Below, in pieces: positions 6,131 to 28,302 of a stretch of 34,631 nucleotides of DNA. A program made the translations under genes and the position numbers. Numbering within the stretch: position 1 is the stretch's first letter; each line of letters begins with the position of its first letter. The notes beneath the pieces were generated by a model. It saw nothing but the letters and a program-made list of their open reading frames with translations, had not been told where the DNA came from and made no database searches. The stretch comes from a virus. Lineage: Duplodnaviria; Heunggongvirae; Uroviricota; Caudoviricetes. The stretch lies in IMG/VR virus record IMGVR_UViG_640753023_000006; one strand, given 5' to 3'.

Positions 6131-8347
6131 CTAAGCGGTAACGTTTTCCTCTTCTAGTTCGTCCATCATTTTTAAATAATGCATTTCGTCACCAGTAGCT
6201 GAAAATATTGTTCTCAATTGTTTTAGGTATTTATCTGGGTCTATGTCGCCCATATCAGTAATATTTACCGCATCAGAGTGAGAACCTCTGTTAATGTATC
6301 TGTAGAATGCTTTGAAATCACTGTTGCTATCGTCGCGTGCCAACTTTGTTAATTCATCTTGTAGAGCATCTGTTCTATGAACAAATGCAAAATAATATTC
6401 TAGTATGTTTCTCATAATATTCGGTATTATGATTTTGTTTGCTTTGCCATCTTTTGCATCTTTTAATATTTGCCACAAAGATTGATATTCATTCTGTATG
6501 CTGTTTTTTTGTATTTCAGTAATTATACTAAAATCATTTTTCGTTACTCTACCTAGATAATAGTTTTTCTTAAATAGTTTGTCTTCTCTGCTTTTAGGAG
6601 ATAGCTTAATAAGTTCATGAAAGAAATAAAGATTGTGAGTAAGGATTAATACCTTCTTTGTTAATTCATTTTTTATAATGTGGTGATGAATAATTGATGC
6701 GATGTCGTAGACATAGTTTTGCGATAGACTAGATATTGGATCGTCAATAACAATAAAAATATCCCTGCTATCGGTATCATTTTTATCGGTTTTACCTTTA
6801 CAGCACTCTAAAAAATAAAGAAACGTTATTAGTGTTTTTTCACCTTCGCTAAGAGATCTATAAACATTTTGGTTTTTTGTATGCCCTGGTCGAGATATAA
6901 TGTACATATCTTTTCTTTCTGCATGTTTTTCAATACAAAAACCAGAGATCCCTAGATTTTTTAAATGGGTGTTTATTGAGTCTATCGTAGAATCAATGTT
7001 AGATATTTTATCTCGCAATGCTTTTATTGTGAGATTATTTTCTTTTCCTTGTTGCTCAATATTATTTAATTCATCATGAACTTTCTTTTTGATATCAAAG
7101 AATTTTTCTTTGTGTTTGGATAAATTCTCTAAATCATCGCTGCAAAAAGCATGGAGAGCCCCCCAAACTTGTTTTCCGATTTTATTCTCATACTCTTTGA
7201 GTTTTTTAACCTTATCATTTATGTCTCTTATTTTCTTGTTAACAGCGCCTATGCTTTCCTGAACATGATTTTCTAGTTCTTTATCAATTTCTAATGTAAC
7301 GCATGTTGATGGATTGTTGATCTTATCAATAATGTTTATTAAATTTTTTTCTGCAATGTTTTGCAATATTTTAATATTGGAAATAATGTTCTCTTTATCT
7401 TTCTCATTGATTAGTGCACATGATGATATATTGTTTTGTATTTCGTTAAAATGATATATGGTATTTTTCTCATAAACTGACTTTATATCTGAGAGCTGTT
7501 TTACTTTCTTTGAATAACTTTCGTCAAATATTGATTTAAGGGCATTTAAAAATTCGTGACTAATAGTTTTTTCCTGACAAAACGGACATGTAGAACCGTC
7601 TAAATAATGTTCTTTACCTTTTTTTACCCAGTCAAGATTATGAAGTTTATTAATGGTTTCTGATAAATAGCTATTGCTTGTATCTATTATAGGTGTTGCT
7701 AATGTATTTACATCATCAATTGATGGGGTATATGGATGTAAAGGAGTTATTAATGCGGTTTCATTGTTTCTATTTTCTAATAGTATAGAGTATTCTTTTG
7801 CTATATCATTTAAATTAATAAAGGTGATTGGTGAGGATGATTTTATCATCTCAAAAAAAGGTCTTTTATAGCCAACTTTACCTTTCATTAAGGTTTTTAG
7901 TACAGAGTTTCTGATTGGTTCTGTTTTTTTCCAGATCGATTCGATGTATTCATTTTCTTTTTTTTCCATTTCTGCTTCTAATTTCAATAACACTCCTTTT
8001 TTTTGTCTATATTGCTCTGTGAGTTGCTGTTTAATTGCTTCTTTTTCAATTAATTGTTTTTCAATATCTGCATTTTCTTTACTTAATGTAAAAACACCTT
8101 TTTGTTCCTGTGCATTATAGAAGTTATCTTCAATAAATTTAGTGTTGTAAACAAGAGGTTTGTAATTGTCAAGAAGGGTACATTCACACTCGTTATAATC
8201 TGTGTGTGTAGAGTCGTAGAAATAATTTGAAATGGTAGATTTGCCACAACCATTTTGGCCGTATAGTATGTTTACTCTTTTTTCAAGATTCAGTATTGTG
8301 AAGGCGTCTTTCTTATAACTGGTAACATTTTTTAATCTAAGTTCCAT
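6131..8347 (-). CDS. Rad50/RloC-like ABC ATPase with coiled-coil CxxC zinc hook and C-terminal effector-like domain; candidate anti-phage defence protein
   Basis: 738 aa, ATG at 8345-8347 with GAGG 7 nt upstream. Walker A YGQNGCGKST (DNA about 8234-8260); long K/E-rich coiled-coil segments; CPFC at DNA 7577-7588 (GSTCPFCQEK); ABC signature RSLSEGEK; Walker B/D-loop IFIVIDDPISSLS; H-loop LILTHN; then about 150 aa including RNILE-x6-H. Strongly AT-rich relative to the flanking phage genes; sits at the P2 tin/old position. Confidence 0.85.
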   Translation of the reverse strand: MELRLKNVTSYKKDAFTILNLEKRVNILYGQNGCGKSTISNYFYDSTHTDYNECECTLLDNYKPLVYNTKFIEDNFYNAQEQKGVFTLSKENADIEKQLIEKEAIKQQLTEQYRQKKGVLLKLEAEMEKKENEYIESIWKKTEPIRNSVLKTLMKGKVGYKRPFFEMIKSSSPITFINLNDIAKEYSILLENRNNETALITPLHPYTPSIDDVNTLATPIIDTSNSYLSETINKLHNLDWVKKGKEHYLDGSTCPFCQEKTISHEFLNALKSIFDESYSKKVKQLSDIKSVYEKNTIYHFNEIQNNISSCALINEKDKENIISNIKILQNIAEKNLINIIDKINNPSTCVTLEIDKELENHVQESIGAVNKKIRDINDKVKKLKEYENKIGKQVWGALHAFCSDDLENLSKHKEKFFDIKKKVHDELNNIEQQGKENNLTIKALRDKISNIDSTIDSINTHLKNLGISGFCIEKHAERKDMYIISRPGHTKNQNVYRSLSEGEKTLITFLYFLECCKGKTDKNDTDSRDIFIVIDDPISSLSQNYVYDIASIIHHHIIKNELTKKVLILTHNLYFFHELIKLSPKSREDKLFKKNYYLGRVTKNDFSIITEIQKNSIQNEYQSLWQILKDAKDGKANKIIIPNIMRNILEYYFAFVHRTDALQDELTKLARDDSNSDFKAFYRYINRGSHSDAVNITDMGDIDPDKYLKQLRTIFSATGDEMHYLKMMDELEEENVTA

Positions 8348-8662
8348 TTTTATGCCTCATACGATAAAGCTTTTATTGTATGTAAAAAAGCAGCTTAATA
8401 TAGCCACTTAGTGGTAAAGATCTACCTTAAGACTTTGATATGTTCAAGAGGCATATAACGTAAGTGTTCGTTGAGCCAAATGTGTTTACGCTATGACGAG
8501 TTGGTCGTTTTTTGACAATCCTGTAGGAGCTATAGATAGGCGTATATTAAGTGCGTGTTTTTGCATGTGTCAGATACTATTCTTTTTGTCAGTTTCGGTC
8601 AGTGCTGATGTGATTTCAGTTTCATCATGCAACTGCATTAAAACCGCCCCATGAAGCGGGCG

Positions 8663-15379: not shown

Positions 15380-15661
15380 ATGACAGCAGAAGAAAAAAGC
15401 GTCCTGTCGCTTTTCATGATTGGGGGGCTGATTGTTGTCGGCAAGGTGCTTGCCGGTGGTGAACCCATCACCCCGCGTCTGTTTATCGGGCGCATGTTGC
15501 TCGGTGGTTTTGTCTCGATGGTTGCCGGTGTTGTTCTGGTGCAGTTTCCTGACCTGTCACTGCCTGCGGTGTGCGGTATCGGCTCCATGCTGGGTATCGC
15601 CGGTTATCAGGTGATTGAGATTGCCATTCAGCGCCGCTTTAAGGGCAGGGGGAAACCGTAA
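15380..15661 (+). CDS. Y: holin (P2 gpY)
   Basis: 93-aa product with hydrophobic helices (LFMIGGLIVVGKVLAGG, VSMVAGVVLVQF, GIGSMLGIAGY) and a basic C-terminus; first gene of the lysis cassette. Confidence 0.85.
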   Translation: MTAEEKSVLSLFMIGGLIVVGKVLAGGEPITPRLFIGRMLLGGFVSMVAGVVLVQFPDLSLPAVCGIGSMLGIAGYQVIEIAIQRRFKGRGKP

Positions 15662-16158
15662 TGCCGGTTATTAACACGCATCAGAATATCGCCGCCTTTC
15701 TCGACATGCTGGCCGTGTCCGAAGGGACGGCAAACCATCCGCTGACGAAAAACCGGGGCTATGACGTGATAGTCACCGGACTGGACGGGAAGCCGGAAAT
15801 TTTCACCGACTACAGTGACCACCCGTTCGCACATGGCCGACCGGCGAAGGTGTTTAACCGTCGCGGTGAAAAATCCACGGCCTCCGGTCGCTATCAGCAG
15901 CTTTACCTGTTCTGGCCGCATTACCGCAAACAGCTTGCCCTGCCGGATTTCAGTCCGTTGTCACAGGACAGACTTGCCATTCAGTTGATCCGCGAACGCG
16001 GTGCACTGGATGACATCCGGGCGGGACGCATTGAGCGCGCCATTTCACGCTGTCGCAATATCTGGGCGTCCCTGCCGGGTGCCGGTTACGGTCAGCGTGA
16101 GCATTCACTGGAAAAACTGGTCACCGTCTGGCGTACCGCTGGCGGCGTACCGGCTTAA
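15661..16158 (+). CDS. K: endolysin / lysozyme (P2 gpK)
   Basis: 165-aa product MPVINTHQNIAAFLDMLAVSEGTANHPLTKNRGYDVIV... (lysozyme-like EGT motif); start overlaps the Y stop. Confidence 0.9.
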   Translation: MPVINTHQNIAAFLDMLAVSEGTANHPLTKNRGYDVIVTGLDGKPEIFTDYSDHPFAHGRPAKVFNRRGEKSTASGRYQQLYLFWPHYRKQLALPDFSPLSQDRLAIQLIRERGALDDIRAGRIERAISRCRNIWASLPGAGYGQREHSLEKLVTVWRTAGGVPA

Positions 16159-20523: not shown

Positions 20524-22533
20524 ATGAGCATAAAATTCAGAACCGTTATCACCACTGCCGGTGCAGCAAAGCTGGCAGCGGCAACCGCGCCGGGAAGGCG
20601 GAAGGTCGGCATTACCACGATGGCCGTCGGGGATGGCGGTGGTAAATTGCCTGTCCCGGATGCCGGACAGACCGGGCTTATCCATGAAGTCTGGCGACAT
20701 GCGCTGAACAAAATCAGCCAGGACAAACGAAACAGTAATTATATTATCGCCGAGCTGGTTATTCCGCCGGAGGTGGGCGGTTTCTGGATGCGTGAGCTTG
20801 GCCTGTACGATGATGCGGGAACGTTAATTGCCGTGGCGAACATGGCCGAAAGCTATAAGCCAGCCCTTGCCGAAGGCTCAGGACGTTGGCAGACCTGTCG
20901 CATGGTCATCATCGTCAGCAGTGTGGCCTCAGTGGAGCTGACCATTGACACCACAACGGTGATGGCGACGCAGGATTACGTTGATGACAAAATTGCAGAG
21001 CACGAACAGTCACGACGTCACCCGGACGCCTCGCTGACAGCAAAAGGTTTTACTCAGTTAAGCAGTGCGACCAACAGCACGTCTGAAACACTGGCCGCAA
21101 CGCCGAAAGCGGTAAAGGCCGCGTATGACCTGGCTAACGGGAAATATACCGCACAGGACGCCACCACAGCGCGAAAAGGCCTTGTCCAGCTTAGTAGCGC
21201 CACCAACAGCACGTCTGAAACGCTCGCCGCAACACCAAAAGCCGTTAAGACGGTAATGGATGAAACGAACAAAAAAGCGCCATTAAACAGCCCTGCACTG
21301 ACCGGAACGCCAACGACGCCAACTGCGCGACAGGGAACGAATAATACTCAGATCGCAAACACGGCTTTCGTTATGGCCGCGATTGCCGCCCTTGTAGACT
21401 CGTCGCCTGACGCACTGAATACGCTGAACGAGCTGGCGGCGGCGCTGGGCAATGACCCGAATTTTGCTACCACCATGACTAATGCGCTTGCGGGTAAGCA
21501 ACCGAAAGATGCTACCCTGACGGCGCTGGCGGGGCTTGCTACTGCGGCAGACAGGTTTCCGTATTTTACGGGGAATGATGTTGCCAGCCTGGCGACCCTG
21601 ACAAAAGTCGGGCGGGATATTCTGGCTAAATCGACCGTTGCCGCCGTTATCGAATATCTCGGTTTACAGGAAACGGTAAACCGAGCCGGGAACGCCGTGC
21701 AAAAAAATGGCGATACCTTGTCCGGTGGACTTACTTTTGAAAACGACTCAATCCTTGCCTGGATTCGAAATACTGACTGGGCGAAGATTGGATTTAAAAA
21801 TGATGCCGATGGTGACACTGATTCATACATGTGGTTTGAAACGGGGGATAACGGCAATGAATATTTCAAATGGAGAAGCCGCCAGAGTACCACAACAAAA
21901 GACCTGATGACGTTGAAATGGGATGCACTAAATATTCTTGTTAATGCCGTCATTAATGGCTGTTTTGGAGTTGGTACGACGAATGCACTAGGTGGTAGCT
22001 CTATTGTTCTTGGTGATAATGATACCGGATTTAAACAGAATGGAGACGGTATTCTTGATGTTTATGCTAACAGTCAGCGTGTATTCCGTTTTCAGAATGG
22101 AGTGGCTATTGCTTTTAAAAATATTCAGGCAGGTGATAGTAAAAAGTTCTCGCTATCCAGCTCTAATACATCCACGAAGAATATTACCTTTAATTTATGG
22201 GGTGCTTCCACCCGTCCAGTGGTTGCAGAGTTAGGCGATGAGGCCGGATGGCATTTCTATAGCCAGCGAAATACAGATAACTCGGTAATATTTGCTGTTA
22301 ACGGTCAGATGCAACCCAGCAACTGGGGAAATTTTGATTCCCGCTATGTGAAAGATGTTCGCCTGGGTACGCGAGTTGTTCAATTGATGGCGCGAGGTGG
22401 TCGTTATGAAAAAGCCGGACACACGATTACCGGATTAAGAATCATTGGTGAAGTAGATGGCGATGATGAAGCCATCTTCAGGCCGATACAAAAATACATC
22501 AATGGCACATGGTATAACGTTGCGCAGGTGTAA
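20524..22533 (+). CDS. H: tail fiber protein (P2 gpH)
   Basis: 669 aa; conserved N-terminus MSIKFRTVITTAGAAKLAAATAPGRRKVGITTMAVGDGGGKLPVPDAGQTGLIHEVWRHALNK...; internal tail-fibre repeats; more AT-rich, divergent C-terminal receptor-binding part. Confidence 0.9.
   Translation: MSIKFRTVITTAGAAKLAAATAPGRRKVGITTMAVGDGGGKLPVPDAGQTGLIHEVWRHALNKISQDKRNSNYIIAELVIPPEVGGFWMRELGLYDDAGTLIAVANMAESYKPALAEGSGRWQTCRMVIIVSSVASVELTIDTTTVMATQDYVDDKIAEHEQSRRHPDASLTAKGFTQLSSATNSTSETLAATPKAVKAAYDLANGKYTAQDATTARKGLVQLSSATNSTSETLAATPKAVKTVMDETNKKAPLNSPALTGTPTTPTARQGTNNTQIANTAFVMAAIAALVDSSPDALNTLNELAAALGNDPNFATTMTNALAGKQPKDATLTALAGLATAADRFPYFTGNDVASLATLTKVGRDILAKSTVAAVIEYLGLQETVNRAGNAVQKNGDTLSGGLTFENDSILAWIRNTDWAKIGFKNDADGDTDSYMWFETGDNGNEYFKWRSRQSTTTKDLMTLKWDALNILVNAVINGCFGVGTTNALGGSSIVLGDNDTGFKQNGDGILDVYANSQRVFRFQNGVAIAFKNIQAGDSKKFSLSSSNTSTKNITFNLWGASTRPVVAELGDEAGWHFYSQRNTDNSVIFAVNGQMQPSNWGNFDSRYVKDVRLGTRVVQLMARGGRYEKAGHTITGLRIIGEVDGDDEAIFRPIQKYINGTWYNVAQV
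21046..21249 (+). repeat. tandem 132-bp (44-aa) coding repeat inside H (phage tail-fibre repeat)
   Basis: Two copies starting 21046 and 21178 encoding KGFTQLSSATNSTSETLAATPKAVK... and KGLVQLSSATNSTSETLAATPKAVK...; near-identical at the DNA level over about 60 bp per copy. Confidence 0.75.
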
Positions 22534-22536
22534 GTT

Positions 22537-23064
22537 ATGCAGCATTTAAAGAACATTAAGTCAGGTAATCCAAAAACAAAAGAGCAATATCAGCTAACAA
22601 AGAATTTTGATGTTATCTGGTTATGGTCCGAAGACGGAAAAAACTGGTATGAGGAAGTGAAGAACTTTCAGCCAGACACAATAAAGATTGTTTACGATGA
22701 AAATAATATTATTGTCGCTATCACCAGAGATGCTTCAACGCTTAATCCTGAAGGTTTTAGCGTTGTTGAGGTTCCTGATATTACCTCCAACCGACGTGCT
22801 GACGACTCAGGTAAATGGATGTTTAAGGATGGTGCTGTGGTTAAACGGATTTATACGGCAGATGAACAGCAACAACAGGCAGAATCACAAAAGGCCGCGT
22901 TACTTTCCGAAGCGGAAAACGTTATTCAGCCACTGGAACGCGCTGTCAGGCTGAATATGGCGACGGATGAGGAACGTGCACGACTGGAGTCATGGGAACG
23001 TTACAGCGTTCTGGTCAGCCGTGTGGATCCTGCAAATCCTGAATGGCCGGAAATGCCGCAATAA
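22537..23064 (+). CDS. G: tail fiber assembly chaperone (P2 gpG-like)
   Basis: 175-aa product [41 protein letters not shown]... with the C-terminal tail-fibre-assembly signature (...[28 protein letters not shown]); immediately downstream of H. Confidence 0.85.
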
Positions 23065-23432
23065 GTTGTATGACCTCTGTTGTGAACTTACATATCTATG
23101 GCACAGAGTAAAGCCTAATCTGAAGTCCACTCTGTGCCAAAAGCGGACCTTATAAACAAGAACAATGGTCATATCAGTGTGTTTTGATTGCATAGCTAAC
23201 GTGCGTCTTCCTGTACAGAATCATAAGATGATAGGGCATAGGAGATGATTATTATCGCGTGTTTTAAAAATAGCTTTCTGCATCAAGTGTCACTTGCGAA
23301 GAGGTATTGGCGCTATGATTGGCATCACTCAGTTCAGATAATATTTTAAATATTTGGTAAATGTTCAGATTACACAATTCGGTCTGCGTCCCGTTAAAAT
23401 TATCTACTATTAGTTATTACTATGAGGTGAAT

Positions 23433-23474
23433 GGCAAGTGTTTTCCACTCGCCATTTTTGTTTTTTATTTTTTT
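23433..23474 (+). terminator. candidate plus-strand intrinsic terminator at the 3' end of cargo island 2
   Basis: Stem GGCAAGTG (23433-23440), loop TTTTC, stem CACTCGCC (23446-23453; 7 of 8 pairs), followed by ATTTTTGTTTTTTATTTTTTT. The T-run overlaps the last Lys codons of the minus-strand NTPase gene. Oriented to stop rightward (H-G late) transcripts. Confidence 0.45.
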
Positions 23475-25051
23475 AAAGCCTTTCCGACGTTTAAGGATTT
23501 TGCCAAGCCATAAAATATTTGATATTTCATTCCTGTTTTTATTTTTGGTGAGATATTTGCGTAACTTCTTTCTCTAAAACACCAACGTATAAACCTATTA
23601 TTATCTTCGGTTGTTTCTATATAGCATATTACATTGAGACCAAAAAGAAACTGAAGGAAGTCATTTGCAGTTGTCATGAATTTTGGTTTTGTTGTGGAAA
23701 TGGAACTAATATGAGTTTCAAGTTGTTTATATGCTAAGAGGTATTCAGCGTAATCAAAAGTATCTTTTCCAGAGAGGAATTCAAAGAACTTTAAAAAAAT
23801 CTCATAATGTTCACTTCCATAATAAAATGATAAATGATCTTTTATTTCTCCAAGTAAATAGTTAGAGTAATCTCTTTGCATGCTAGGACTTTCAAAGTCA
23901 TCTAGACTAAATTGATTTTTCCCATCATCACCGCTGGCGTGTGATTTGATAATTTCGAGCATCCGTAATATATCTCTTGGGCGATAATATGACCAGCGAA
24001 GGAAATTAATAAATGATGTGGGGTGGTTATAATTATCATGGACGTTGGGTGAATCCCAAGGGAAATAATGGTCCCATGCCTGTCCCTTTTTAAGGGCCAT
24101 GTCTTGCTGAGTCCTAAGCAGATGATCTAATACCTCAAATAATTGAGAGCTACGGTGGTTAACATATTCTGTCCGCCAGTCCAAGAATACTGAATTATCT
24201 CTGATTTTTGCGTTTTGATTTTGTAATCCTATGGATTCAAATATATCTGGCCTGATCAAGAGAACGGCCTTCATTCTCCCTTTTCCTCCCTTTATACTTG
24301 GGAAGAAATCGTTGTTAATCTCCCAGACTGCGTGAGCTAATCCTTTTATACATTCTAGATAATCATCGTATGGAATTGAGGAAGGGCGGATATCAATACC
24401 ATCGATAAATAAAATATGATTTTGAGATAAACGTATTTGGCTAAAGGCCTCTTCAAATTTTTTTTGTATATAAAATAAATTTATCTGAAATCTGCTCTCA
24501 GAAAAAGATAAAGACTCTCTTTCTTCACCTTTTAAGGTTGCATGCTTATGAAGTAGTTCGGCTGCAACTTTTGACTCTTGAACAAAACTGAGGGCTTGAA
24601 TTATTTCTGGTGAAAATGCCTTAAGATAATACTCATCTATTGCATCATTAAGTGATGAGAATTTTGAATAATTTAGTAACTTTGAAATTTTCCCTTCTTT
24701 ATCTAATACTTGTTTTGATATTAATAAATATAGAATAACTTTCCATATGCCAGAGAAGTCAGACAAATTTAAATGCTTTTCAGATTTAAGAGTGATAAAT
24801 TTTTGATATTCTGTCTCTCTTATATATTTAGTTGTAGCTAGCGTATTGTTAATATTGTTATTTGAGAGATAGATAGAGTATGCGGTTTTACCAGTACCTT
24901 TCTCTCCTACAAGAAACGATATATTTGGTTCACATAATCTAGATAGGTGATTATCACGTATGAACACTTTGTTAAGTAATTCTTTATTCTCCCTTCTCTT
25001 ATAATTTTCAGCATCAGCATAGCCAAGAGTTAGATCTTTGATTGGTATCAT
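23465..25051 (-). CDS. P-loop NTPase with NACHT/KAP-like Walker B; candidate single-gene anti-phage defence protein (Z/fun hotspot)
   Basis: 528 aa; ATG at 25049-25051 with GAGGT 5 nt upstream. Walker A VGEKGTGKTA (DNA 24884-24907); Walker B-like NHILFIDGIDIR about 160 aa later; YYRPRDILRMLE motif; C-terminal about 250 aa without recognisable motifs. AT-rich; located between G and FI. Confidence 0.8.
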   Translation of the reverse strand: MIPIKDLTLGYADAENYKRRENKELLNKVFIRDNHLSRLCEPNISFLVGEKGTGKTAYSIYLSNNNINNTLATTKYIRETEYQKFITLKSEKHLNLSDFSGIWKVILYLLISKQVLDKEGKISKLLNYSKFSSLNDAIDEYYLKAFSPEIIQALSFVQESKVAAELLHKHATLKGEERESLSFSESRFQINLFYIQKKFEEAFSQIRLSQNHILFIDGIDIRPSSIPYDDYLECIKGLAHAVWEINNDFFPSIKGGKGRMKAVLLIRPDIFESIGLQNQNAKIRDNSVFLDWRTEYVNHRSSQLFEVLDHLLRTQQDMALKKGQAWDHYFPWDSPNVHDNYNHPTSFINFLRWSYYRPRDILRMLEIIKSHASGDDGKNQFSLDDFESPSMQRDYSNYLLGEIKDHLSFYYGSEHYEIFLKFFEFLSGKDTFDYAEYLLAYKQLETHISSISTTKPKFMTTANDFLQFLFGLNVICYIETTEDNNRFIRWCFRERSYANISPKIKTGMKYQIFYGLAKSLNVGKALKK

Positions 25052-25441
25052 TATTACCTCAACTAAAGCAATTGAAAAACATATGGTTATAAAAACATAG
25101 CGCTGCTCTGTCGCATATTGTGGATATCAACATATGAAATGTAAAGGAACTATTTGTGGATGAATGAACCGAATCGCTGTAGCTTCGGTAGTCATCTTTC
25201 AGACTTGTATAAATGAACAACTTCCGCTTCTCGCTCAAAGGAAACTGTCAGATTTGATAGCTTTTGGGCTATGTAAACTGTCAGTCGGAAAATGAGTGAG
25301 TACAAATCAGGGCAGGTGAGCGAATTGCCCGCCTTTTCTTTACCGGTGGTTGTGCTGTCGATTAGCCAACCGGGACAAATAGCCTGACATCTCCGGCACA
25401 ACTGAAAATAACACTCACCCATTAACCACGGAGTTAAACGG

Positions 25442-25805
25442 ATGAGTGACTATCATCACGGCGTGCAGGTGCTGGAGATTAACGACGGCACCCGCGTCAT
25501 TTCCACCGTATCCACCGCCATTGTTGGCATGGTCTGCACGGCCAGCGATGCGGATGCGGAAACCTTCCCCGTCAATAAACCGGTGCTGATCACCAATGTG
25601 CAGAGCGCGATTGCAAAGGCCGGTAAAAAAGGCACGCTGGCGGCATCGTTGCAGGCCATCGCTGACCAGTCAAAACCGGTCACCGTTGTCGTGCGCGTGG
25701 AAGACGGAACCGGCGACGACGAAGAAACGAAACTCGCGCAGACCGTTTCCAATATCATCGGCACCACTGACGAAAACGGTCAGTACACCGGACTGAAAGC
25801 CCTGC
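25442..25805 (+). pseudogene. FI: tail sheath gene FI, 5' fragment (disrupted by IS insertion)
   Basis: [43 protein letters not shown]... matches the P2 sheath N-terminus up to ...QYTGLKALL, then reads into IS sequence ([16 protein letters not shown], stop at 25858). Confidence 0.9.
25801..25805 (+). repeat. target-site duplication (left copy), CCTGC
   Basis: CCTGC immediately 5' of the IS left terminus; identical 5-mer at 28388-28392 immediately 3' of the right terminus. Removing the IS and one copy restores the FI reading frame (...[11 protein letters not shown]...). Confidence 0.75.
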
Positions 25806-25998
25806 TGCGTATTTTCATGAAAGGAGATCACTCAATAACTTCCATCGAGATCGGGTAATAACATTTGAACAGATCGCTGAATAACATCGATGGAGATCAC
25901 TTTTGACTCATTTTGTTATTCAGTGATCTCCATCAATGTTATTGGAACTTCACAGGTGTGTTGATCTGTATCTTTTGCCATTCCGGTAAAGGATACCT

Positions 25999-27541
25999 AT
26001 GCCAACAGTTCCAATTTCTATGAGAAAACTTAAAGAAATTCTTAGGCTTAAATACGGTGTTGGACTCAGCCATCGACAAATTGGTCGTAGTCTTGCAATC
26101 TCCCCTTCCGTTGTATCCAGATATGCTAATCGGGCGGCTCAACTTGGCATAAAGCAGTGGCCCTTACCTACAGGATGGGATGATACAAAACTAAAACATG
26201 CGTTCCTTCAGACCCAGGTTAAGATGAAGAAGCACTCTCTGCCTGACTGGGCTACAGTACACCGGGAACTGCGTAATAAATGCGTGACGCTGCAGCTACT
26301 CTGGGAAGAATACTGTGAGCGTAATCCAGGCGGTTTTTACAGCTATAACCATTACTGCCGGATGTACCGTGAATGGCTCAAAACCACTTCACCATCAATG
26401 CGTCAGGTACATAAAGCTGGCGAAAAACTTTTCGTTGATTACTGTGGACCTACCGTTGGCGTTACCGACCCTGAGACCGGAGAAATAAGAACTGCTCAGG
26501 TCATCGTAGCTGTTCTCGGGGCATCAAGTTACACATGGGCAGAGGCCACCTGGTCTCAGCAGCTTGAAGACTGGGTGATGAGTCATGTTCGCTGCTTCCA
26601 GTGGTTGGGTGGCGTTCCTGAACTTGTTGTTCCGGACAATCTGAAAAGCGCCACATCCAGGGCATGTAAGTATGATCCTGACGTTAACCCTACCTACCAG
26701 CAGATGCTTGAGCATTATAATGTCGCAGTTTTGCCTGCGCGGCCACGTAAACCGAAAGATAAAGCCAAAGCTGAAGTTGGCGTTCAGGTTGTTGAACGCT
26801 GGATCATGGCCCGAATCAGGCATGAGATCTTCTACAGCCTTGCATCGCTTAATCAGCGCATTCGGGAGTTGCTGGAAAGACTGAATAACAAAATAATGCA
26901 GAAGTTGGGTTATTCACGTGCAGAACTCTTCATCCAGCTTGATAAACCCGCACTGAAGCCTCTTCCTGAAGCCAGTTACAGTTACACCCTGGGTGAAGAA
27001 AGTCAGAGTTCATGCCGATTACCACGTGGAAATCGACAAACATTACTACTCGGTTCCATGTTCGCTGTTAGGCCAGCAACTGGAAGCATGGATCTCCGGA
27101 GAACTGGTAAGACTCTTCAATCAGGGGCAGGAGGTTGCTGTGCACCCGCGCAAGCGTACTTATGGCTACAGTACCCGCAACGAGCACATGCCTGAAGCTC
27201 ATCGACAGCATGCCACCTGGACGCCAGAGCGTCTTCTGGAATGGGCGGGGCACATAGGCAGTGAAACTCATAGTTATGTGCTTCATATACTGAACTCTCG
27301 TCCACATCCGGAACAAAGCTATCGCTTCTGCCTTGGACTCCTGAACCTTCATAAAAAATACAGTAAAGCCAGACTTAATGCAGCATGTGCAAGAGCTCTG
27401 AAAACAAAGGTATGGCGTCTGTCAGGTATTAAATCGATCCTGGAAAAAGGTCTGGATAAACAACCTGTTCAGGATCCAAAACCAGATCTGTTATCCACGA
27501 TGGAACACGAAAACGTACGCGGCAGTGAGTATTACCACTGA
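25999..27541 (+). pseudogene. istA: IS21-family transposase IstA, apparently frameshifted
   Basis: The N-terminal 331 codons (HTH MRKLKEILRLKYGVGLSHRQIGRSLAISPSVVSRY plus DDE-type core) are in one frame from 25999; the C-terminal about 180 aa (KKVRVHADYHVEIDKHYYSVP...) continue in the +1 frame from about 26990. The shift lies at or near the CCC run 26987-26989. Confidence 0.75.
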
Positions 27542-27552
27542 TACGGGATCCA

Positions 27553-28302
27553 ATGATGAATCATCTTTACGAACAACTGACCGCACTTAAACTCACCGGC
27601 TTCCGTGATGCGCTTAAAAAGCAACTTGCTCAGCCGGGCACATACCAGGAGCTGGGCTTCGAAGAACGCCTGTCATTACTGACAGCAGAAGAACTAACCT
27701 GCCGTGAAAACAGGAAGGCAGAGCGTCTGATCAAACATGCACGGTTCAGACTTAATGCTGAGTTATCAAAGCTGGATTATCGTAACAATAGAGGGCTGGA
27801 CAGGGCCCTCATCCGTTCACTCAGTCAGGGAAACTGGTTAACCCTGAAACAAAATATTTTACTGACCGGGGCCACCGGCAGCGGTAAAACGTTCCTGGCA
27901 TGTGCACTTGGTCATAATGCCTGCCGACAGGGATACAAGGTCTACTATTATCGCCTTAAAGCGCTGATGGAACAGTGCTATCAGGGGCATGCTGATGGAA
28001 GATACAGCAAACTTTTGACCAGGCTGAATAATAGCGATCTGCTGCTTCTGGATGACTGGGGGCTGGAACCTCTCTCATCAGAACAGCGTAGCGACCTGCT
28101 GGAAATAGTGGATCTGATGTACCAACGAGGCTCAATCATCGTAGTGAGCCAGTTGCCGGTGGAAAACTGGTACAAAATGATCGGAGACTCCACACATGCG
28201 GATGCCATCCTAGATCGACTGGTTCATGGCAGTATCAAGATCGAACTTAAAGGAGAATCAATGCGGAAAATACAATCTCCGTTGACCGAAGGAGATCAGT
28301 GA
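27553..28302 (+). CDS. istB: IS21-family helper ATPase IstB
   Basis: 249 aa with Walker A LLTGATGSGKTFLACALG and Walker B LLLLDDWGLEP; typical IstB/DnaC-like AAA+ helper downstream of istA. Confidence 0.9.
   Translation: MMNHLYEQLTALKLTGFRDALKKQLAQPGTYQELGFEERLSLLTAEELTCRENRKAERLIKHARFRLNAELSKLDYRNNRGLDRALIRSLSQGNWLTLKQNILLTGATGSGKTFLACALGHNACRQGYKVYYYRLKALMEQCYQGHADGRYSKLLTRLNNSDLLLLDDWGLEPLSSEQRSDLLEIVDLMYQRGSIIVVSQLPVENWYKMIGDSTHADAILDRLVHGSIKIELKGESMRKIQSPLTEGDQ

Follow-up and report, generated by a model that had tools for sequence, protein, structure and literature searches.

A P2-type Z/fun cassette between genes G and FI of a P2-like prophage, and the predicted fold of its product

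The window analysed here is the whole stretch of 34,631 nucleotides (nt) in IMG/VR record IMGVR_UViG_640753023_000006, a Caudoviricetes virus related to P2, and the segment in question is its AT-rich interval 23065–25441, which lies between the late genes G and FI and holds the gene fun(Z). On the left, G (22537–23064, plus strand), the tail fibre assembly gene and the last member of the late V-W-J-I-H-G operon, is recognised by Pfam Caudo_TAP (5e-38) and by its counterpart P2 G in AF063097. On the right, the 5' part of the tail sheath gene FI (25442–25807, plus strand) is recognised by Pfam Gp18_domIII_N and is cut at 25807/25808 by an insertion sequence (IS) element of the IS21 family. The only large open reading frame (ORF) of the interval is the fun(Z) coding sequence, found on the minus strand at 23465–25051 and encoding 528 amino acids (aa). 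The first-pass annotation of this DNA had described a single large minus-strand gene transcribed against the late operons, and the ORF list bears this out: fun(Z) is convergent with G and its V-W-J-I-H-G operon and divergent from the FI operon with its Ogr-activated promoter pF.

Comparison with the P2 record AF063097 (15275–17651) gives 2 mismatches in 2,377 nt (99.9% identity). These two substitutions, at 25398 and 25411, are the differences from P2 in the pF region, and both of them fall outside fun(Z), beyond the Ogr site and ahead of the start of pF transcription. At the protein level, the 528 aa show 100% identity to P2 Fun(Z) (AAD03288.1; tblastn, phage collection). With an offset of +20289 the annotated features of AF063097 are colinear with those of the window, and the position and orientation of the gene, its terminator, and the pF promoter elements are the same as in P2 (AF063097 / NC_001895). 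The identical locus is named 'P-loop ATPase, Sll1717 family' in RefSeq. As for its distribution, a match to at least some part of the query, mostly to the backbone flanks, was obtained in 1,268 complete E. coli genomes, and the full island is carried by 12 of them, all with the same gene order.

These comparisons show the segment to be P2's own Z/fun region, an AT-rich cassette for lysogenic conversion (a moron) that fills the G–FI slot with one gene of known anti-phage role. High confidence attaches to the identity and role of the locus, and not to the mechanism inferred for its product; no evidence counts against the Z/fun identity. The first-pass annotation had proposed an AT-rich cargo island at the Z/fun position of P2. 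Its core reading is supported, in that horizontally acquired AT-rich DNA does lie between G and FI; the cargo, however, is not another gene at that place but Z/fun itself. The locus is already known as the reference Z/fun allele, with both the gene and the hotspot present in the literature (PMC8594841, PMC9519451, PMC11990801, PMC8987985). The finding is a rediscovery; to the question of how Fun(Z) works, the present analysis adds a structural framework for the protein and specific residues for mutants.

Regarding base composition, the GC content of 23065–25441 is 0.350, compared with a mean of 0.506 (sd 0.076) over 2,377-nt windows of the whole stretch and with 0.538 for the prophage without its islands or IS. 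A windowed calculation of this kind had been suggested as the check on the AT-rich claim, which it upholds. The interval ranks second-lowest among the 2,377-nt windows, the lowest being 6139–8515 (0.299), which belongs to the other variable region of P2-like phages. The flanks had also been described as GC-rich, and this holds for the backbone overall (0.538), but not for the immediate left neighbour. On that side GC falls gradually, and the C-terminal half of gene H together with G (21601–23064) is already at 0.44, so that the AT-rich zone begins well to the left of the island. Within the tail-fibre gene H the N-terminal half has 56% GC versus 44% for the C-terminal half plus G, a contrast in keeping with the mosaic exchange for which tail-fibre ends are known.

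The borders of the imported DNA were set by comparison with P2-like phages and prophages that have other genes between G and FI. Their slot cargo consists of an HNH endonuclease in EC12, orf44-like genes in Wphi, HQ103, and ECCNB12-2, a DUF3606 set in R18C and CFSAN061770, an FRG-domain protein in S1-ZIM, a 197-aa hypothetical protein in ECO_1_S, and two hypotheticals in PSS-10. Altogether, 7 different fillings occur between FI and its left backbone neighbour, which is G except in one backbone variant, where an invertible tail-fibre cassette takes its place and a DNA invertase lies directly upstream of FI. On the left, homology breaks at 23139–23148, according to flank-only BLAST matches and junction alignments, with the slot edge backed by 8 further loci; on the right, it starts again at ~25218–25231 in 7 of these 8, namely those retaining FI. 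From the two breakpoints it follows that the foreign DNA spans approximately 23149–25217.

Thus delimited by BLAST and by alignments against EC12, Wphi, R18C, HQ103, and more E. coli prophages, the variable DNA proper (~23149–25217) has a GC content of 0.333. The left flank of the slot (23065–23148, plus strand), homologous to P2-like loci with other cargo, and the right flank (25218–25441, plus strand), conserved in alignments to P2-like phages, are by the same alignments P2-type backbone rather than cargo. The first-pass estimate of an island of ~2.4 kb was right as to the presence of AT-rich cargo, while its true extent is narrower. The comparison of G–FI content across P2-like prophages, proposed there as a second check, reveals different genes between the same junctions and confirms a variable locus. 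In this respect the window resembles the 'Z region', or defence hotspot 2, of P2-like phages, where variable G–FI cargo likewise sits between fixed junctions, with nothing different in kind. Vassallo et al. (2022) identified the G–FI slot as a second defence-enriched locus of P2-like phages, with fun occupying it in the reference genome (PMC9519451). As a separate observation, the last 80 nt of the right flank (25362–25441) are 100% identical to the corresponding stretch of an E. coli P2-like prophage (L015) in which FI is immediately preceded by a DNA invertase and an invertible tail-fibre cassette.

The Rho-independent terminator of the V operon, annotated at 15639–15666 in AF063097, maps to 23429–23456 on the plus strand, inside the island, where it abuts the 3' end of fun(Z). 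On the plus strand it folds with −13 kcal/mol and is followed by a T-run, and on the minus strand its stem reaches −16.9 kcal/mol (z −7.2). The terminator separates fun(Z) from the V-W-J-I-H-G operon and would probably also shield the gene from antisense read-through. At the other end, the 5' region of fun(Z) (25052–25217, minus strand) has a ribosome-binding site, GAGGT, at a distance of 5 nt upstream of the ATG. A candidate sigma-70 promoter for fun(Z), TTTACA-17-CACAAT, runs from 25145 to 25117 on the minus strand with 9/12 matches in the promoter scan, which is no better than in shuffles; promoter-like sites in that scan are generally no commoner than in shuffled sequence. The terminator scan found no terminator-like site, and Rfam reported no family in 22900–25600. 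An ORF of 59 aa at 25059–25238, upstream of fun(Z), was considered and dropped, being unannotated in P2 and RefSeq and lying outside the DNA shared with the copy in Proteus that is described below.

In the right flank, the Ogr activator site (25345–25373) and the pF transcription start (25416–25418), both on the plus strand, were mapped from the AF063097 annotation. Upstream of the Ogr site, folding and alignments reveal a degenerate terminator-like hairpin with a T-run (25309–25344, plus strand). In most P2-like phages this hairpin reads GGCGGGC-GAATT-GCCCGCC-TTTTCTTT, and P2 and the window have a weaker form of it (GGTGAGC...GCCCGCC).

The first-pass annotation had also reported a 10-bp perfect inverted repeat at the left edge of the island. 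Its arms, GGCACAGAGT at 23100–23109 and ACTCTGTGCC at 23129–23138, are located exactly as described. The perfect arms, however, are 11 bp long (TGGCACAGAGT / ACTCTGTGCCA, 23099–23109 / 23129–23139) with a loop of 19 nt, and the repeat belongs to the conserved flank and not to the island. As plus-strand RNA the hairpin at 23099–23139 folds with −17.4 kcal/mol (z = −2.9). The window holds 6 different hairpin repeats that are perfect over 10 bp or more, with 10 position-wise matches versus ~1.6 in composition-matched shuffles. The repeat is real but not unique by itself, and its weight comes from its conservation in 9 P2-like loci.

Across these 9 loci, 8 of the 11 pairs never vary, two pairs carry a one-sided change that keeps G-U pairing on the plus-strand RNA (GC to GU and UA to UG), and in one locus the outermost pair does not form. 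No compensatory change was found among them, so the comparative data neither prove nor disprove the structure. According to the usual features of intrinsic terminators the hairpin does not qualify, as it has the 19-nt loop, its stem is followed by AAAAGCGG with no T-run, and the terminator scan is negative at this place. Its interpretation as the terminator of the G operon was rejected for the missing T-run and in view of the annotated V-operon terminator at 23429–23456. Judged by the junction alignments, the hairpin is a conserved backbone element that ends at the left junction, and not imported DNA.

An imperfect inverted repeat of 25–33 bp, with the core AATCTGACAG / CTGTCAGATT, was also detected between the two flanks of the slot. 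In the window its left arm lies at 23117–23147 (core AATCTGA(C)AGT...), overlapping the hairpin, and its right arm at 25223–25254 (...ACTGTCAGATT). The repeat was scored by locally aligning the left flank with the reverse-complemented right flank, with shuffles as the control. The highest score belongs to EC12 (36 for 33 bp with 27 matches, versus a shuffle maximum of 24), followed by Wphi (25 versus 23, marginal) and HQ103 (25 versus 25, within range). In the window the score of 22 exceeds the shuffle mean of 14.8 and stays below the maximum of 26, i.e., it is not significant, and in R18C the same alignment test detected no repeat. A passage of PMC8987985 that cites Nilsson et al. (2004) mentions inverted repeats flanking fun, which are thought to allow site-specific exchange, and the presence of an imperfect repeat at both junctions fits the statement in that passage.

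For the hairpin, and for it only, these observations raise a real possibility, to which we give somewhat less than even weight, that it is not an RNA element but part of a DNA site for cargo exchange. The left arm of the bracketing repeat overlaps the 3' half of the hairpin, homology breaks directly 3' of the hairpin in all compared loci, and the repeat brackets the slot, clearly above shuffles in EC12 only and marginally in Wphi; the exchange reported in the passage just mentioned points in the same direction. On the other hand, the window's own repeat stays within the shuffle range, R18C has none, and no recombinase is associated with the slot. Moreover, both substitutions in the hairpin keep G-U pairing, and an RNA 3'-end structure would fit the data equally.

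The role of Fun(Z) in defence is known from several sources. According to the fun(Z) note in AF063097, the cloned gene stops T5 growth, is nonessential, acts in lysogenic conversion, and confers sensitivity to fluorodeoxyuridine (FUdR). When expressed, Fun/Z excludes every phage tested from the Markadamsvirinae (T5-like), Tevenvirinae, and Vequintavirinae as well as a Felixounavirus, and the BASEL study places it among abortive-infection systems (PMC8594841). In the literature the excluded phages thus comprise T5 and T-even, rV5-like, and Felix O1-like phages, among others. The BASEL follow-up of 2025 reports that it targets most phages with genomes above ~60 kb (PMC11990801). Both studies state that the molecular basis of Fun/Z is unknown, and searches for mechanistic literature on it from after 2022 gave nothing but this follow-up (PMC11990801).

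As for the protein itself, Fun(Z) matches NCBIfam NF047389 (P-loop ATPase, Sll1717 family) over residues 9–518 with 209.3 bits versus a cut-off of 75 (1e-61), as well as phrog_13260 (4.6e-212). Pfam has no family for it, PADLOC yields only a weak P-loop match (PDC-M28C, E 0.003) and no Avs or NACHT model, and sequence searches of the PDB with both the single sequence and a profile return nothing better than E ~0.4. A literature search on 'Sll1717' gave no papers. The family comprises 1,804 matches in 90% clusters and 685 representatives at 50% identity. Its members, almost all of them stand-alone proteins of 520–550 aa, occur in Salmonella, Proteus, Pseudomonas, Shewanella, Methylobacter, Desulfobacterota, and others, and identity across distant genera is 62–91%.

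In an alignment of 61 family members with 25–62% identity, the residues K51, G52, G54, K55, D217, D220, N246, R267, N278, and R359 are invariant, and this invariance of ATPase residues implies that the NTPase is under selection. The first four lie in the Walker A motif G49-E-K-G-T-G-K-T56, whose codons occupy 24884–24907 on the minus strand. D217 and D220 belong to Walker B, L-F-I-D217-G-I-D220-I (24392–24415, minus strand), which has the form hhhhDGhD and resembles the NACHT/STAND type. An assignment to the KAP NTPases, suggested by Walker B and a 'RPRD' motif, was dropped for lack of Pfam support.

According to the fold model, Fun(Z) has an AAA+ core of the ORC/Cdc6-, TnsC-, and STAND-like kind, followed by a lid and a C-terminal winged helix. 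The C-terminal domain (residues 376–528; 23468–23926, minus strand) is predicted to be a helical bundle with the winged helix, and a helical insertion of ~130 aa separates Walker A from Walker B. The AAA+ core with Walker A, Walker B, arginines, lid, and winged helix corresponds in the predicted fold to the ORC/Cdc6-type architecture, while no ORC/Cdc6-type family profile gives a significant sequence match (Pfam; PDB profile E 0.4 or worse). Sub-threshold Pfam matches across the 61 members are most frequent for ORC-CDC6-like (21/61), followed by nSTAND3 (13/61), AAA_16 (12/61), and NPHP3_N (8/61); the ORC-CDC6-like count is taken at E ≤ 0.01, and the three members with printed scores are below the gathering score of 27 bits. 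Sequence similarity to the ORC/Cdc6 initiator clade, TnsC, MuB, and the archaeal SSO1545/PABY2304 ATPases is below every Pfam threshold. In addition, Fun(Z) differs from the ATPases of the ORC/Cdc6 clade in its ~130-aa insertion and in having no known role in replication or transposition. Domain fusions are found in three relatives, two of them with a C-terminal cold-shock nucleic-acid-binding domain (25.5 and 23.2 bits) and one with an N-terminal Ser/Thr kinase.

Outside P2-like phages the gene occurs in several unrelated settings. The Salmonella copy (91% identity) is located inside the transfer region of an integrative and conjugative element (ICE) or plasmid, the Proteus copy (88% identity) adjoins the integrase of a non-P2 prophage, and in Shewanella and Pseudomonas the gene stands alone as an insertion in the chromosome. 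At the DNA level, only 23462–25092 is homologous to the Proteus copy, which corresponds to the ORF with its ribosome-binding site. No conserved partner gene was found among the neighbours in Proteus, Salmonella, Shewanella, and Pseudomonas. The assumption of a partner gene or of a toxin-antitoxin pair was dropped, since the neighbours of the homologues show no relationship and no similarity links the small upstream ORFs. The homologues considered here include L012/L013 (4001–5587), L007–L010 (5001–6587), P0123, P0125, and P0202.

Based on the predicted architecture and on the published phenotype, a working mechanism can tentatively be proposed in which Fun(Z) would be an ATP-driven switch that binds nucleic acid. 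Its target could be phage DNA or the replication or degradation intermediates typical of large virulent phages. On it the protein would oligomerise, as ORC/Cdc6, TnsC, and MuB do on DNA, and the assembled form would block DNA replication or expression and in this way abort the infection. FUdR, by starving the cell of thymine, would trigger the same activity on host DNA. Taken as a whole, this mechanism is a model-based suggestion that we hold to be possible and short of probable.

Several points weigh against this proposal. In comparisons with the C-terminal domain of Fun(Z), winged-helix domains of STAND and NLR proteins score equal to DNA-binding ones, and the winged helix may therefore serve oligomerisation rather than DNA contact. 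Foldseek against the PDB retrieves the same families as the fold model, with nothing below E = 1e-3. The two cold-shock fusions are below the Pfam gathering score of 27, the FUdR link comes solely from the GenBank note of AF063097, and the prophage is defective owing to the IS in FI.

The explanation that competes best with the ATP-driven nucleic-acid switch is that Fun(Z) is a minimal STAND/NACHT-like sensor, which would recognise a phage protein rather than DNA, oligomerise by means of its AAA+ and winged-helix module, and kill or arrest the cell by runaway ATP hydrolysis or through a host factor, as in classical abortive infection. It agrees with the NLR winged helices among the matches of the C-terminal domain and with the sub-threshold matches to nSTAND3 and NPHP3_N (13/61 and 8/61), and the kinase of one relative is located at the N-terminus, where STAND proteins bear effectors. 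Walker B (DGID) and the motif 'LLIRPD' also resemble the NACHT motifs DGhDE and TSRP. The listing among abortive-infection systems in BASEL is in line with such a sensor as well (PMC8594841). However, Avs and bNACHT proteins have an effector at the N-terminus and sensor repeats of the TPR, LRR, WD40, or a similar kind at the C-terminus, and Fun(Z) has neither: it ends with the winged helix, only ~45 residues precede the P-loop, and no sensor repeats or recognisable effector domain were found in it, i.e., both accessory modules are absent. No Avs or NACHT model of PADLOC or Pfam matched the protein, and a single protein ligand would hardly account for so broad a range over unrelated large phages. 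We regard a STAND-like sensor as rather unlikely.

Going back to the nucleic-acid switch, a more far-reaching version of it appears unlikely too. It would combine a new kind of single-protein defence, in which a minimal ORC/Cdc6- or TnsC-like AAA+/winged-helix protein loads on DNA structures formed by large phages or under thymine starvation and blocks replication without a nuclease, toxin, or signalling partner, with a new recombination mechanism that swaps cassettes among P2-like phages, ICEs, and chromosomes at the repeat-bracketed slot.

Less probable still is a nucleotide-pool sensor, i.e., an NTPase that switches on when the pool of deoxynucleoside triphosphates changes, as with large phages or with the action of FUdR on thymidylate synthase, and stops growth. 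Phages above ~60 kb generally bring genes for a nucleotide metabolism of their own and break down the DNA of the host. The FUdR sensitivity given by fun(Z) in the P2 record is compatible with such a sensor, as are the size of the sensitive phages (> ~60 kb; PMC11990801) and the fact that the nucleotide-binding site is the only conserved catalytic feature. These points, however, are purely circumstantial, an allosteric nucleotide-sensing domain was not found in the protein, and the ORC/TnsC-like fold with its winged helix suggests macromolecular partners. Finally, the assumption that fun(Z) is an inert passenger of a decaying prophage, for which the defective state of the latter with its split FI could be cited, is hardly credible, as the gene is intact and its protein identical to that of the functional P2 gene, the only 2 substitutions in 2,377 nt are both outside it, and the family is strongly conserved (62–91% identity across distant genera).

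The surrounding prophage differs from P2 in two further respects. FI is split by the IS21-family element, which has a length of 2,582 bp (25808–28389): P2 homology ends at 25807 and is picked up again at 28390, where an overlap of 5 bp represents the target duplication, and this insertion into the tail sheath gene renders the prophage defective. Within the element, istA (25999–27541) is apparently frameshifted around 26993–27195 and is followed by istB (27553–28302; IstB_IS21, 2e-67). Perfect inverted repeats of 10–13 bp are clustered at 25877–25934, just inside its left end, and are probably its terminal or multiple repeats.

The second difference concerns the TO region (6131–8347, minus strand, GC 0.30), where the window has an AAA_13 / PDC-S06 gene and not tin/old as in P2. 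This gene encodes a 738-aa ABC-type ATPase with matches to Pfam AAA_13 (2e-111) and to the PADLOC candidate system PDC-S06 (1e-254), and the C-terminal part of the protein is PrrC-like. By its sequence the window is accordingly best described as a P2 relative that carries P2's Z/fun together with other TO cargo.

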